NCBI GenBank assembly: GCA_038252715.1 | Contig: JBBSAA010000001.1 | Span: 251 to 64,250 of the forward strand | Length of the DNA stretch: 64,000 nucleotides | DNA from: Lysobacterales bacterium | Lineage (GTDB): Bacteria; Pseudomonadota; Gammaproteobacteria; Xanthomonadales; Xanthomonadaceae | Reading direction: 5' to 3' | In this document: positions 30,634 through 61,621 of the stretch, piece by piece | Position numbering within the stretch: position 1 is the first letter of the stretch | Layout of the letters: each line of letters starts with the position of its first letter | The notes under the pieces: model-generated | The model's database searches: none | Told to the model about the DNA's origin: nothing | Seen by the model: only the letters and a program-made list of their open reading frames with translations | Program-made: the position numbers and the translations under genes

Positions 30634-31404
30634 CTAAATGCCGGCCAACACTAGCGACTGGAGCGCAGAGGTACCGTAGAGCACCCGACGCCCTAAGGTA
30701 CTCAATTTGCCCTGGGTGATTGGGGTGGCCGGCTTGTCGGGCAAGGCGATTGCCGCCAACACGACCCAAGGGTCAGAAGGACAGGCGCGGCAAGGCGGCA
30801 CCGGCGGCGCGCCGCGATCCTTGCTGTCGTGCCAACTTTTCCACTGGGCGAGAAAGTCCTTGTCAGCTTTCATCGCGTCCACGTGTGACGGCGGTAGCTC
30901 CTGCAGCACTTTTAGTTCGAAATCATCGCGAACCCGCGAGTACTCGCAGACCATCTCGTCGCAGCCGCAGCCGAGCGGGTGCACCCGCACCGGGCGTGAA
31001 TCGCATTCGGCGTGACGGATCGCCAAGAACACCGGCATGGCCAGCCGTTGGCCCTTGTCGCTGCTGGCCGGCGGACAAGGCCAGGGCTGGCAGGGCTCGC
31101 AATCGCTGGCCCCGGACGCGATGTCGAAAAATATTGGATCGGCGACGGTGATCTCGTCGCCCTGTGGCCCGATCGCGTAGCCGGGGCAGACCCGTACGCG
31201 CCAAGGATGTTCGGCATCGGGCGCCGCTTCCACCGACAGTCCGCACACCACTCCCCAGCCGTGCAGAAAGCGATTGTGGCGGCGGTCGTGCTGGCGAAAG
31301 TAGTCCTGCTCGGTGGTCATGTCGTCGGCGGTGATGAGCTGGCGCGGAAAATACCGCACGCGCTCCAGGCCGAAGAGTCCGGGTTTGCAAGTACTGGCTG
31401 ACAT
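30634..31404 (-). CDS. CIS-associated fibre/adaptor-like Cys-rich protein
   Basis: N-terminal RVRYFPRQLITADDMTTEQDYF...HGWGVVCGL domain, shared with two neighbours. Confidence 0.7.
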   Translation of the reverse strand: MSASTCKPGLFGLERVRYFPRQLITADDMTTEQDYFRQHDRRHNRFLHGWGVVCGLSVEAAPDAEHPWRVRVCPGYAIGPQGDEITVADPIFFDIASGASDCEPCQPWPCPPASSDKGQRLAMPVFLAIRHAECDSRPVRVHPLGCGCDEMVCEYSRVRDDFELKVLQELPPSHVDAMKADKDFLAQWKSWHDSKDRGAPPVPPCRACPSDPWVVLAAIALPDKPATPITQGKLSTLGRRVLYGTSALQSLVLAGI

Positions 31405-31439
31405 GGCTGGATCCTTTGCTGACGTGATTGGTTCGCCGG

Positions 31440-33623
31440 TTAGAGCGATTTGAACTTGATGACGAAATCGCCGCCGGCGACGCCATTTCCGGACGGGAAG
31501 CCGAGCGGCTCACCGTCAAGCCGACCACCGTCCGCGGCCATGACTTGCGGCCTTCTGCCCGATGGATCGGGATCGGCAAACAGGGTTAGCGAATAGTCGC
31601 CGCGTTGGAACAACCTTGGGTCGGGCGTGATCGTGTACAGCACTGTTTCGGGCGACAGCATCGTTGCTGTGCCGGCAGTGGCCTGCAGCGCTTGTCCGCT
31701 GCGATTGCTGGTGACGAGCAACGAGTACGAATTGGGATCATCTGCGAAGCCGCCGGTAACGATACTCTTGGGCTCCACCGGGCGGTTGAAGGCGATACGC
31801 ACGGCGTTGACGTTGTTGGCCTCCTTGAAGCCACCGGCCTTGGCCGGCGTGGACATCTCGACGACGTCTCGCCCCTGGATGTCAACGAAGGTCACGCTGA
31901 CCACTTTCAGCACATCGGCATGGGTGGGCGGGTCCTCGGGTTTGGGCTGCTCAGGTTTCGATGGCGAGCTACCATCGCAGCAGGCATCCATCTTGTCGGC
32001 GAGGCACAGGATCAGATCTAGCAAGGTCTCGTTGCTGAGCAAGCGGGTGCGATGCGAGCACGTATCGACGGCGCCGATCGTGCCGTCGGCCAGCAGTTCA
32101 ATGGTCGCCAGTGGAATGCATTCGCCTGCAGGTGTCGGACACGGACCCGCCAAGGCATGGCAGAGACGGTCGCGAAGGCTCATCAGGTCGACGACGGTGA
32201 CGCTGCCATCCGCCGCTGTAACCAGGGCACGCTTGCGTTTTGGCACCACCGCGACGCCGTTCGCGCCGCTGCCGACCGGCAGGCGTGCGAGCAGGGCGAG
32301 GCCGTCGCTGGCGTAAATCACGATTTCATCGGCGTCCTTGCCGTCGACGCTGTGCACCAAGTGATAACGCCCGCCGTCATCGGTGAAGGCGCTGTCGCGC
32401 GGATTGGCGTCAACCGGCGCATCGTCCTTCGCACCGATGTCGTCGAAGCGACGGCGAGTGCCAGTGCCGGCTGACCAGGCCTGGCGCGCACTGCCGGCGC
32501 CGGTGCCAGCCAACGTCTGACAGTCGCCGTCAAGCGACTCGCGCCAAAGCACCTTGAGCGTGGTCGTATCAACGGCTGTCACCGTCTTTTCGCTGTTGTC
32601 GGCCACGAACAACAGGCGTCCGTCCTGCGACACCGCGACATCGAACGGCGATTTGCCCAACTTGAGCGGCTTAGCCTTGCCGCTGTCGACATCGATGACT
32701 TCGACGACATCGGCCTTGGTGTTAATTGCGTACACGCGCTTGCCGGCGTGACTGGCGGCGCAGCGGCCGTAGGACCGATCGGTCAGCACCACTTTCGGTT
32801 GCGGCGATTCAGCGTCCAAATCCACCAGTACGATGCCACCACCGTGGGTGACGAAGGCGGGTCCGCCGTCTGGCGCGATGCAGATGCCGGCCGGGCGCTC
32901 AAGCAAGGCCGCAGGCAGTGGCGCGGCAAGCGCCAGCGATCCCATTTCGATCATCTGCAGCGGCGCCTTACCGGCGGCGTTGATCACCAGCGCACGCCGG
33001 CCAGTGCCCGACACCACGACACTGATCGGTCGGCCACCGAGTTCGAGCCGCGCAATGACTTGATAGCCGCTGCCGGCGCCCTTCAGCGGTTCTTCAAGCG
33101 CTTCGCACAGGCCGGGCGACTGTTCGGGCCAGCCTTCCCTGATCCACAGGTCGAACGACTCCACTACGCTGCCGGCTTCGCAATTGCTTGTTCCTCGACA
33201 ATCGGTGATCAGCACCGGCGTCATGTCGGCCAGACATTCGCGGTATGACAGGCACAGGGTGACGCGCTGGGCCTTGTCGCGCGGCAGTTCGAGCAAGGGC
33301 TTGCCGCATTCGTCGCGCAGGCGCCACGGGTCGATGCAGTAACGCGATGGCACTATTACTTCGCGACCCAAGGCATCGAGTGCAACGCCCGGATCAACGC
33401 AGAGCGTGCCGTCCTTGACCTGCACTTGTAAGCCACACAACACGCCAGTGCCGATGGACAGACGGTTGAGCAGATGGCGCTTGTCGTTGTGGTACGACTG
33501 CTCGGTCTCGAACTGCAGAACGTCCATCATCTTGCTGAAATAATAATTGTTGCGCTTGGGCGCATCGAGTTTCCCGATGGCCGGCGCCACGCCGTGCGAA
33601 GAATGCGACTGACAGCAACTCAT
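31440..33623 (-). CDS. CIS fibre/adaptor-like protein with YVTN/YncE-type beta-propeller and C-terminal Ig-like domain
   Basis: Same N-terminal domain (RNNYY...EQSYH...GVLCGL); repeats like PFDVAVSQDGRLLFVAD..TVTAVD; C-terminal IAFNRPV...GDYSLTL. Confidence 0.7.
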   Translation of the reverse strand: MSCCQSHSSHGVAPAIGKLDAPKRNNYYFSKMMDVLQFETEQSYHNDKRHLLNRLSIGTGVLCGLQVQVKDGTLCVDPGVALDALGREVIVPSRYCIDPWRLRDECGKPLLELPRDKAQRVTLCLSYRECLADMTPVLITDCRGTSNCEAGSVVESFDLWIREGWPEQSPGLCEALEEPLKGAGSGYQVIARLELGGRPISVVVSGTGRRALVINAAGKAPLQMIEMGSLALAAPLPAALLERPAGICIAPDGGPAFVTHGGGIVLVDLDAESPQPKVVLTDRSYGRCAASHAGKRVYAINTKADVVEVIDVDSGKAKPLKLGKSPFDVAVSQDGRLLFVADNSEKTVTAVDTTTLKVLWRESLDGDCQTLAGTGAGSARQAWSAGTGTRRRFDDIGAKDDAPVDANPRDSAFTDDGGRYHLVHSVDGKDADEIVIYASDGLALLARLPVGSGANGVAVVPKRKRALVTAADGSVTVVDLMSLRDRLCHALAGPCPTPAGECIPLATIELLADGTIGAVDTCSHRTRLLSNETLLDLILCLADKMDACCDGSSPSKPEQPKPEDPPTHADVLKVVSVTFVDIQGRDVVEMSTPAKAGGFKEANNVNAVRIAFNRPVEPKSIVTGGFADDPNSYSLLVTSNRSGQALQATAGTATMLSPETVLYTITPDPRLFQRGDYSLTLFADPDPSGRRPQVMAADGGRLDGEPLGFPSGNGVAGGDFVIKFKSL

Positions 33624-33632
33624 GATGCTCTC

Positions 33633-60359: not shown

Positions 60360-60513
60360 TCGGCCCATGAGCCTTCGAAAGCCGCGCGGCCGCTGCGTGT
60401 GCTCAGCTGCAACGCAAAAATATCGACATGCGTGTCACAGGTAAATCGATCACTTGTGGGGTGATAGAAATTCACTGCCCGCAAAAAGTCACGTCCTTGC
60501 GCGGTTGCGATCA

Positions 60514-60556
60514 CTGTTACACCGCCTGTTACACCGGGTGTGACAGCGTTACACCG
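60514..60556. repeat. Clustered GTTACACC direct/inverted repeats (putative upstream activator sequence)
   Basis: CTGTTACACCG at 60514 and 60526, inverted GGTGTGACAG at 60537, CGTTACACCG at 60547. Confidence 0.7.
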
Positions 60557-60676
60557 ATAGGCGCACACCTGCGACGCCGACGCGCGGGAGCGCGCGGCGC
60601 CATGGCGGCGATGTCAAAGTGCAGTCAGCAAGAAGACGATGCGATACGGCGGACCCGCAGACGGGCGATGCGCCCG

Positions 60677-61621
60677 TCAGGGTGCCGGCAGGCGAACTGG
60701 CGCCGAAATGTGGTACTTGGTCAATTTTCGGTACAGCGTCATGCGCGAGCAATTGAGCTCTTCGGCCGCGCGGCATTTGTTCCAGCGGGTCGCGAACAGG
60801 GCGGCGATGATCCTGTCGCGCTCTTGGTCATCGTCGCTGGTCGCCCGTTCGGCCATTGATGCCAGTGGCGCGGGCAAATCAGCCGGGGTGATGCCATGCG
60901 CAGGCGGATCAATGAAGATGGCCTCGACCACGTTGCGCAGTTCTCGGACGTTGCCCGGCCAGTGGTAACGCAACAGACAGGCCAGCGCCTGTTCGGAGAT
61001 GCCCGCAACCTCGCGCCCCGACGACCGGCTCATGATGCCCACGTAGTGCATGAACAACTCGGCGATATCGCCACGCCGCTCGCGCAACGGCGGCAGGTGC
61101 ACGCGGGCGACGTTGAGCCGGAAGAACAGGTCGGCGCGGAATCTCTGCTGGACCAGCAGCGATTCAAGGTCCTGGTTGGTCGCAGCGATAAAACGCACGT
61201 TGATCGGCTCGGGATGGCGCCCGCCCAGGCGCGAGACTTCCCGCGCTTCGATCACGCGCAGCATCTTGGCCTGCATAGACAATGGCATCTCGCCGATTTC
61301 ATCAAGCAGCACCGTGCCGCCTTCAGCGAGCTTGAGCTTGCCCGGATAACTGGTGTTCGCGCCGGTAAACGCGCCCCGTTCGTACCCAAACAGCTCGCTT
61401 TCGAACAAGGACTCGGGCACCGCCGCACAATTGATGCTGACGAAGGGCTGGGCACCGCGCGCGCTTTGCTGGTGGATCAGCTGAGCGATCATTTCTTTGC
61501 CGGTGCCGGTCTCGCCGGTGAGCAGCACTGTGCAATCGCTAGCCGCCACCTTGCCTACATAGACGAGGACATCGCGAATGCTGGGACTGACTGCTATCAG
61601 GGGAGACTGGTACGGCTGCAT
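60677..61621 (-). CDS. sigma54-dependent enhancer-binding activator lacking an N-terminal sensor domain
   Basis: GETGTGKE, ELFGYERGAFTGA, LDEIGE, WPGNVREL, Fis-type HTH SRMTLYRKL; AAA domain starts within ~10 residues of the N-terminus. Confidence 0.92.
   Translation of the reverse strand: MQPYQSPLIAVSPSIRDVLVYVGKVAASDCTVLLTGETGTGKEMIAQLIHQQSARGAQPFVSINCAAVPESLFESELFGYERGAFTGANTSYPGKLKLAEGGTVLLDEIGEMPLSMQAKMLRVIEAREVSRLGGRHPEPINVRFIAATNQDLESLLVQQRFRADLFFRLNVARVHLPPLRERRGDIAELFMHYVGIMSRSSGREVAGISEQALACLLRYHWPGNVRELRNVVEAIFIDPPAHGITPADLPAPLASMAERATSDDDQERDRIIAALFATRWNKCRAAEELNCSRMTLYRKLTKYHISAPVRLPAP

Follow-up and report, generated by a model that had tools for sequence, protein, structure and literature searches.

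A subtype IIa contractile injection system in a Lysobacterales genome, with predicted sigma54 control and a conserved chaperone frameshift signal that points to a ruler candidate

What kind of machine is encoded by a long and tightly packed gene cluster in the genome of a Lysobacterales bacterium, and how would it be built, controlled and used? The cluster lies in a stretch of 64,000 nucleotides (the window; GenBank assembly GCA_038252715.1, contig JBBSAA010000001.1, positions 251 to 64,250 of the forward strand) and encodes a contractile injection system (CIS). In our reading, which as a whole we consider fairly probable, it is a complete CIS of subtype IIa that would be switched on by sigma54, built with a frameshifted chaperone pair and a hub-docked ruler, and released with two likely nuclease cargo proteins. 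What is new about the locus is its dedicated control by sigma54, as predicted, together with a likely and conserved chaperone frameshift of the phage type, which points to a ruler candidate. In the following, "in part" marks sources that are cited for the accessible portion of their text.

The cluster comprises 22 genes on the minus strand, from 61621 down to 30634, and is real and apparently intact. All frames are open, and the 20 junctions within the operon, from the DUF3467 gene through the last fibre gene, range from -14 to +90 nucleotides, with the activator gene 370 nucleotides upstream. Pfam identifies a sigma54 activator, a DUF3467 protein, an AAA ATPase, two eCIS_core (DUF4157) proteins, a Pvc16 cap, a sheath and a T4 gp19-type tube and, on the baseplate side, CIS_tube/LysM, Phage_GPD (weak, E 1e-3), Phage_base_V, PAAR, gp25 and two Baseplate_J proteins. 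NCBIfam adds three proteins with a CIS13-family N-terminus and one CIS12-like protein (TIGR02242, gpI-type) with NHL repeats; the matches to CIS12 and CIS13 are partial and do not reach the curated cut-offs, as would be expected of divergent copies. The DUF6760 identity is clear (E 8e-17), and the chaperone matches PHROG 508. An earlier note, made from the sequence alone, had named the genes in this order, and Pfam, NCBIfam and PHROGs bear it out; both of its "DUF4157 giants" are present, with sizes now refined to 1595 and 899 residues.

The locus unites the core set for a contractile injection system of the extracellular kind (eCIS), namely the tube, the sheath, Afp7, Afp8, Afp9, Afp11, the Afp15 ATPase and the Afp16 cap. 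In the genome, which is 89% complete, one sheath gene and two DUF4157 genes were found, all of them in the cluster. The GC content of the locus (63.7%) is close to that of the genome (62.4%). VipB was not found in the genome, phage head genes are not annotated in the cluster by Pfam or PHROGs, and a membrane complex of a type VI secretion system (T6SS) is likewise not annotated by Pfam, NCBIfam or PHROGs. The T6SS and prophage readings are rejected on these results for VipB and head genes, and the eCIS-type assignment of the earlier note holds. Contigs from two independent soil studies (X2 and X3) cover most of the 18.5 kb tested and differ by substitutions, with zero indels in genes.

By gene content, the locus is a subtype IIa eCIS. 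The dbeCIS scheme (PMC6899500) defines IIa by two Afp11 genes, a split Afp8 (gp27 plus gp5), PAAR and divergent Afp12/13; for IId, the criterion is one contiguous Afp8 together with one Afp11. The locus has the two Afp11 genes, the split Afp8, the PAAR gene and divergent Afp12 and Afp13. It departs from IId, with its single Afp8 and single Afp11, and also from the Afp/PVC systems of lineage I, with their fused Afp8, single Afp11 and Afp14 homologue. Three Afp11 trees were built (30, 25 and 21 rows, with long or redundant rows dropped; quick and FastTree trees), whose references hold one labelled IIa member and zero IIc members. In these trees the window groups with its closest relatives G061 and G143 (support 100), next with Ralstonia Rs5, and next with Streptomyces albiflavescens and Rhodococcus. 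The outer grouping with Halogeometricum, Nostoc and Paenibacillus has a support of 83-91 (not starred), with one labelled IIa reference in the tree. The single-VgrG Streptomyces systems form a separate Afp11 clade, apart from the window; forcing the window to join them gives a marginal p of 0.043 in the approximately unbiased (AU) test, with 9 of the 30 rows dropped.

Classification against dbeCIS and a baseplate tree had been proposed in the earlier note as a check of its claim that the system is a candidate for an undescribed one. The outcome, IIa gene content and an Afp11 near those of Ralstonia, Rhodococcus and Halogeometricum and apart from IId Streptomyces, goes against that claim, as does the existence of a characterised IIa member, the CIS of Halogeometricum borinquense (assigned to clade IIa in PMC11566945, in part). 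Multi-fibre baseplates with a gpI adaptor have also been catalogued already, with one example from Pseudoxanthomonas (PMC12923769, in part). Because the IIa features are present, a IIa system has been characterised and gpI-adaptor baseplates are catalogued, the architecture is of a known kind. The actinobacterial likeness seen in the earlier note survives insofar as the layout is common to S. albiflavescens and Rhodococcus WB1, but the characterised actinobacterial CIS are of subtype IId, with one VgrG and one Afp11. An assignment to the actinobacterial IId type is rejected on gene content, the AU test being only marginal. A characterised bacterial IIa system did not turn up in our literature search. 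The locus packs a bacterial IIa system into one compact operon, for which an on-switch is predicted.

The gene after the tube gene encodes a protein with a phage tail-assembly chaperone fold, as judged from its structure model (predicted local distance difference test score, pLDDT, 86). Among PDB folds, the best matches are YqbN (Z 6.7, root-mean-square deviation (rmsd) 4.5, 95 residues aligned), the HK97 tail-assembly chaperone (Z 6.1, rmsd 3.7, 85 residues aligned) and 3fgx (Z 5.8); unrelated rows reach Z 2.8 at most. In a viral structure library, T4-like hub-assembly proteins and Mu FS-gp41 match. A sequence match to the chaperone was not found in 50,697 phage records. In the window, the chaperone frame ends with seven G and two more codons, and DUF6760 follows in the -1 frame. 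The chaperone frameshift of lambda G/GT serves as the model for the proposed fusion. By this analogy, most ribosomes would stop after the 125-residue chaperone, and a minority would slip by -1 on the G run, held there by a hairpin, to yield a 176-residue chaperone-DUF6760 fusion, a course of events that we regard as very likely. An assembly error as the source of the frame change is ruled out, because contigs of two independent soil studies span the junction without an indel.

The arrangement is widely conserved. In a junction survey of 98 rows (97 loci and one duplicate), DUF6760 is in the -1 frame in 89 of the 97 loci, and 84 of these 89 have an in-phase slippery heptamer; the exceptions comprise four truncated loci, one without DUF6760, two in frame past the stop and one scored as +1, probably owing to an indel in the record. 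No ATG, GTG or TTG start is available to DUF6760 in 47 of the 84 slippery loci, including the window; a GTG or TTG is present in 36 and an ATG in one. Six DUF6760 loci lack any slippery run, and all of them are ATG-started. One further locus, L141, has a slippery run that was missed by the search pattern. The phase of the G run is fixed in 81 of 83 cases, and GGG makes up 130 of the 690 Gly codons in the chaperone body. Runs of G are also present in Rhodococcus, Ralstonia, Nostoc, Paenibacillus and S. clavuligerus plasmids. Three loci (L161, L162 and L163, from G184, G268 and G414) have GGGAAAA or GGGAAAG in place of the G run, the latter of which we take to be the slippery site of lambda. The heptamer GGGGGAA, found in 46 loci, also marks about a thousand frameshifts annotated in phages (PMC10885494, in part).

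A hairpin is predicted downstream of the G run in the window and at most of the slippery junctions. Its folding z in the window is -1.96; against synonymous recoding, 81 loci with a G run have a mean z of -2.5, and nine others one of about -0.1. In 37 rows, pairing of the stem reaches 95% and the codon GTA stands in 28 of these 37, compared with none of 37 at a control codon; in nine Streptomyces rows the stem is in another register and 90% paired. The likely frameshift, already marked in the earlier note, is the most novel part of the system. To our knowledge, programmed frameshifts are uncommon in chromosomal operons outside prophages and insertion elements. Among the papers listed, our literature search found no report of a frameshift in a CIS and none on DUF6760, subscription papers being mostly not searchable, and the chaperone clusters mentioned in the accessible text of PMC3711429 are of phage origin only.

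The conserved frameshift of phage type points to a specific client gene, which makes the question of tube length testable. Phage chaperones coat the tape measure, the C-terminus of which binds the baseplate (bioRxiv 10.64898/2026.05.27.728243, in part). A tape measure gene has been stated to be absent from lineage II (PMC6899500; also PMC11566945, PMC12237407 and PMC10286715, all in part), yet the particles of the Streptomyces system CIS-Sc are all 268 nm long (PMC12237407, in part), a uniformity that the candidate would explain, if true. The slot between the chaperone pair and the initiator holds, in the window, a 258-residue protein without a Pfam family. In a survey of 38 loci, 29 of which were scored and 26 of which have DUF6760, the slot gene is a low-complexity open reading frame (ORF) of 181-1636 residues with a similar terminal helix in 24 of the 26; of the other two, one is mis-framed and one has 62 residues. 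In Streptomyces, the ORFs after DUF6760 have 549, 1238 and 1383 codons. The PLSDB gene table omits the longest, on S. clavuligerus plasmid NZ_CP065235.1 (L211:13881-18030), which hints at the reason why genes of this kind are overlooked. Position (after G/GT and before the initiator) and length variation are those of a tape measure gene.

The tip of the 258-residue protein would likely dock in the hub, according to complex modelling with the last 44 residues in three copies and two hub copies. The predicted complex scores 0.63, compared with 0.00 for the best of three controls, against a mark that 116 of 157 solved pairs attain, as do 2 of 215 pairs that are mismatched. Between runs, agreement in contacts is at least 89%, the partner pLDDT is at least 54, and the invariant tip touches an invariant stretch of the hub. 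In the assembled particle, the docking site would be the hub trimer, a step we hold to be likely. That the chaperone-coated body of variable length would also set the length of the tube is a suggestion to which we give slightly less than an even chance; at the AlgoCIS ratio, the particle would measure about 60 nm. If true, the locus would give an unusually short particle under dedicated sigma54 control. More tentatively still, lineage II CIS of many bacterial phyla may have kept the phage G/GT frameshift, the gene behind it being a non-helical tape measure with a tip that plugs the hub. Two observations concern the same genes. The slot gene (45693-46469) has the densest run of substitutions among those listed between the window and the X2/X3 strains, again without indels. 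The hub carries a strongly hydrophobic insertion (44475-44562, gpD residues ~144-173), kept in the five closest homologues inspected, that could line a cavity or touch a membrane.

Several points weigh against the slippage and ruler proposals, and each proposal has a competitor. DUF6760 could be made separately by translational coupling, with the G run acting as a ribosome-binding site and no frameshift at all. The GTG or TTG that overlaps the chaperone stop in 36 of the 84 slippery loci makes coupling possible there, a true ATG is present in six loci and in Halogeometricum, where DUF6760 has its own ATG and no G run, and RefSeq lists DUF6760 as a gene of its own. With 46 rows pooled, RNAalifold found no consensus structure, the split into two registers having been made afterwards; the three GGGAAAR loci have no hairpin; and one Streptomyces search supplied about 30 of the 97 loci, so that the counts overstate independence. 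A search of 150 homologues for natural in-frame fusions gave four with DUF6760-like stretches, all partial or noisy, which speaks neither way. Coupling nevertheless appears improbable, as 47 of the 84 loci, including the window, have no usable start, the G run is held in one phase (81 of 83), a downstream hairpin would hinder initiation and suits slippage, and the loci that gained an ATG lost the G run. For the 258-residue protein, the competing explanation is a Cis6-like spike plug with a disordered extension, the chaperone client being elsewhere, likeliest a DUF4157 protein as a cargo like Tme or Sle1, both of which have been described as tape-measure-related (PMC11126660 and PMC13277306, in part). 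Docking in the hub suits a plug equally well, and the pass in complex modelling, obtained with two hub copies and not three, may reflect likeness to solved tape-measure or plug complexes. The slot holds plug-sized genes (60-63 residues) in G052 and G054, where no chaperone was found, and G092 has a DUF4157 gene directly after the chaperone pair. Known eCIS tape measures are helical, and the length of the AlgoCIS one sets cargo capacity (bioRxiv 10.64898/2026.05.27.728243, in part). The 258-residue protein is rich in Ala, Pro and Arg, with 5-14% Pro and Pro-free runs of 28-53 residues in close loci; as its middle is not helical by composition, it is not filed in the Afp14 family, and it possibly works alike. 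A profile of its C-terminal helix scores above decoys in three of seven independent loci and in none of 17 more distant rows, so that position and by-eye resemblance make up the link to the slot genes of IId Streptomyces. Nor do the lengths in Halogeometricum match a ruler: contracted sheaths average 220 nm and are called heterogeneous (PMC11566945, in part), and the gene before the initiator, annotated with 182 codons, looks too short for them. A particle of about 60 nm would also be very short. On the other hand, long slot genes go together with the chaperone pair (24 of 26 loci) in the canonical order G, GT, tape measure, initiator, and S. albiflavescens has the pair and a long slot gene with no DUF4157 match in the 40 kb read. 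We therefore see the plug as a serious contender, though less probable than the ruler.

Control of the operon by sigma54, already proposed in the earlier note, is well supported in silico. The activator has intact GAFTGA, Walker A/B, arginine finger (R-finger) and helix-turn-helix motifs and no N-terminal sensor domain, and is presumably PspF-like; rpoN is present in the genome. The exact -24/-12 site is the only one in the window and lies 39 nucleotides ahead of the first ORF, and sites with one mismatch are at chance level (7 observed, 7.8 expected). Five TGT(A/G)AC half-sites stand upstream of the site, whereas the genome's 11 other exact sigma54 sites have none; more than two occur in just one of 11,906 genome tiles. 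Site and repeats are kept in all three orthologous loci (the window, G061 and G143). With high confidence, we expect that the sensor-less activator would bind the repeats and open the promoter. In G143, the orthologous activator (69%) lies 43 kb from the kept promoter, with unrelated genes between (G143:C1:902486-945271).

The same type of control appears beyond these orthologues. A sigma54 site is present in Ralstonia and, for another CIS lineage within the genus, in five of five loci with an activator next to them, and in none of eight loci that lack such a neighbour; L019 and L020 have an activator gene near, yet no sigma54 site ahead of the sheath gene. In the five genus genomes (G012, G021, G026, G027 and G028; L070-L078), a short sigma54 activator and an exact -24/-12 site precede the sheath gene of the different lineage, so that sigma54 control would recur in distinct CIS lineages. 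The accessible text of PMC8213781 names RfaH, GerE and BTAD as eCIS regulators, with no mention of sigma factors. Nothing specific on sigma54 control of a CIS was found among the papers listed, with the same restriction for subscription papers as above.

The DUF4157 proteins would quite probably be cargo that bears a PD-(D/E)xK-like nuclease module. DUF4157 proteins are secreted cargo in Halogeometricum (PMC11566945, in part). After the core domain, proteins 1 and 2 share a module (51% over 413 residues) that is present in 8 of 12 homologues and has an atlas match to Tox-REase-7 (0.91). The best fold for its model is CdiA-CT (Z 5.9, rmsd 3.8, 92 residues aligned), a weak match among many restriction-type folds. 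A nuclease assignment is weakened by the pLDDT of the model (60), by a Z under 8, by the lack of a Foldseek match at E 0.001 or better and of a Pfam match, and by an Asn where the catalytic motif usually has an acidic residue. The second DUF4157 protein of G061 (L062:13302-15716) has, by eye, an HNH/AHH-like module at the REase-like position, which is an internal and not a C-terminal swap. The 700-residue C-terminal region of protein 1 (53149-55260), with alternating Gly/Ser-rich strands, is kept in 8 of 12 homologues (38-84%). The C-terminal regions of both proteins have no Pfam family, and the atlas gave weak hypothetical matches for protein 1.

Since the cluster has three fibre genes but no gene for a membrane anchor, for immunity or for lysis, the particles would act outside the cell after death of the producer, a reading that we only slightly favour over its negation. 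Release at producer death fits a tightly closed sigma54 promoter. The competing possibility is a machine that works inside the cell, either membrane-bound and T6SS-like, as in Halogeometricum, or at producer death, as in CIS-Sc. The only characterised IIa system is indeed membrane-bound (PMC11566945, in part), the hydrophobic hub insertion is conserved, and a lysis gene, or an immunity gene beside the nuclease-like genes, is not evident in the cluster. However, a hydropathy scan of the 22 proteins (CisA itself was not a query) revealed no dedicated membrane-anchor gene, the presence of three fibre-like genes, one of them with a propeller, hints at targets outside the cell, and a diderm host would need a trans-envelope complex, which the cluster does not encode. 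Action inside the cell therefore appears unlikely, though far from negligible. It could also be asked whether the cluster, as a recently acquired island, is silent or in decay. A search of 82 other genomes of the genus yielded no close homologue of the initiator, and the chaperone was detected in just 6 of 401 genomes of the order. Yet the 22 frames are all open and coupled, three genomes keep the promoter, the enhancer and the activator, and the related soil strains differ over the tested region by substitutions only within genes, all of which makes a silent or decaying island very improbable.

The distribution indicates that the locus is patchy and likely moves horizontally. The nearest locus, in G061 (recorded as Rhodanobacteraceae), has the same 22-gene order and a sheath identity of 78%; G143, from another family of the order, has the same order minus the activator (sheath 70%). 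Near-identical gene orders are found on a Ralstonia megaplasmid, in Rhodococcus WB1 and in S. albiflavescens. A sheath search matched 7 of 36 genus members, all with other CIS lineages. As to the surroundings, contigs of runs X2 and X3 have a 16-base insertion at ~62121-62253, and their match ends at 62253 beside ssb, a possible island edge. An rml sugar operon abuts the last fibre gene. Positions 179-18945 of the window hold a low-oxygen respiration block with two Fnr-like regulators, a copper nitrite reductase, a cbb3 oxidase operon and a heavy-metal ATPase. The coordinates of all features of the cluster are collected in Table 1.

Table 1. Features of the CIS cluster, in the direction of transcription (window coordinates; aa, amino acids)
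Feature	Position	Strand	Basis or remark
Sigma54 enhancer-binding activator, 314 aa	60677..61621	-	AAA+ and HTH only; orthologues 64-69% in G061, G143
TGT(A/G)AC half-sites, cluster of four (fifth at 60434-60439); predicted activator-binding enhancer	60516..60553	-	
Exact sigma54 -24/-12 promoter consensus	60345..60359	-	Conserved in G061 and G143
DUF3467 protein, operon gene 1	59992..60306	-	Pfam; present also in G061, G143; candidate anti-activator
Afp15-type AAA+ ATPase (likely cargo loading)	57929..59995	-	Pfam; role from bioRxiv 10.64898/2026.05.27.728243 (in part)
DUF4157 protein 1, 1595 aa	53149..57936	-	Core, REase-like module ~aa 280-430, low-complexity linker, 700-aa C-terminal region
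DUF4157 protein 2, 899 aa	50453..53152	-	51% identity to protein 1 over 413 aa; C-terminus different
Cap / tail terminator (Pvc16-like)	49521..50456	-	Pfam
Sheath, 649 aa	47525..49474	-	Pfam, PHROGs
Inner tube, 144 aa	47079..47513	-	Pfam, NCBIfam
Tail-assembly chaperone (lambda gpG-like), 125 aa	46611..46988	-	PHROG 508, model fold
Slippery heptamer, seven G, X XXY YYZ phase of chaperone frame	46617..46623	-	
Predicted stimulator hairpin, begins 4 nt past G run	46575..46612	-	RNA folding
DUF6760, -1 frame, no ATG/GTG/TTG near conserved start; likely T part of 176-aa G-T fusion	46456..46617	-	
258-aa low-complexity protein, conserved C-terminal helix with predicted hub docking; tape-measure or plug candidate	45693..46469	-	
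Tube initiator with LysM (Afp7-like)	44988..45689	-	Pfam, NCBIfam
Hub (gpD / gp27 half, split spike)	43792..44991	-	Pfam, NCBIfam, PHROGs
Spike (gpV / gp5 half)	43121..43780	-	Pfam, NCBIfam
PAAR tip, 93 aa	42829..43110	-	Pfam
gp25-like wedge	42409..42825	-	Pfam
Baseplate J / Afp11 copy 1, 1068 aa	39206..42412	-	Pfam, NCBIfam
Baseplate J / Afp11 copy 2, 671 aa	37179..39194	-	Pfam, NCBIfam
Fibre-like protein 1 (CIS13-type N-terminus), 492 aa	35714..37192	-	NCBIfam
NHL-repeat and gpI-type wedge/adaptor (CIS12-like), 692 aa	33633..35711	-	Pfam, NCBIfam
Fibre-like protein 2 (CIS13-type N-terminus and beta-propeller), 727 aa	31440..33623	-	Pfam, NCBIfam
Fibre-like protein 3 (CIS13-type N-terminus), 256 aa	30634..31404	-	NCBIfam

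Among the known systems, the Afp, PVC and AlgoCIS particles of lineage I share with the locus the core of tube, sheath, initiator, spike, PAAR, Afp11, ATPase and cap, but differ in their fused spike, their single Afp11 and their tape measure, the helical Afp14. The eBAP3/5 baseplates with Tail_P2_I (PMC12923769, in part) resemble it in the gpI-type adaptor, the several fibre genes and the propeller-bearing fibres. With Tme of S. davawensis (PMC11126660, in part) and Sle1/Sle2 of S. lividans (PMC13277306, in part), the DUF4157 proteins share the combination of DUF4157 and nuclease modules, long disordered parts and the idea of a tape-measure-like cargo. Tme is encoded just before the baseplate genes and has its nuclease at the C-terminus, whereas the DUF4157 genes of the window stand before the cap gene and have an internal nuclease-like module.

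For the CIS-Sc/SLP type of Streptomyces (IId; PMC10066040, PMC10020575, PMC12237407), the Streptomyces loci read here have the same order of sheath, tube, chaperone and DUF6760, and the GGGGGAA junction followed by the long low-complexity ORF. The IId type differs by its single VgrG and Afp11, its pair of tube genes and its membrane protein CisA, and by acting inside the cell. Judging from gene order, SCO4251 would be the same chaperone as that of the window. It has been described as a protein of unknown function (PMC10020575, in part); it was undetected in the purified particles of one study (PMC10066040, in part) and detected in at least one particle preparation of another (PMC10020575, in part). 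The phage G/GT modules (HK97, Mu gp41, the GGGGGAA sites of SEA-PHAGES) are alike in fold, -1 overlap, slippery motifs and place between the tube gene and a gene of variable length. In contrast to the phage modules, the pair of the window belongs to a headless injection system, its downstream client is Pro-rich and not helical, and its chaperone family has a C-terminal CxxC in 56 of 150 homologues and stands apart from the phage records in sequence.

The system of H. borinquense is similar in the order LysM, gpD, gpV, PAAR, gp25, J, J and gpI-type protein, in the Cis13-like fibre, the DUF4157 cargo genes and the pair of chaperone and DUF6760, in having no recognised Cis14, and in belonging to the same Afp11 branch, with moderate support. 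It differs from the window in its toxin-immunity pairs, its putative anchor and its ATG-started DUF6760. The window, for its part, stands out by a bacterial host, one colinear operon with one tube gene and three fibre-like genes, a sigma54 activator and a slippery junction, and by having neither immunity genes nor a membrane-anchor gene.

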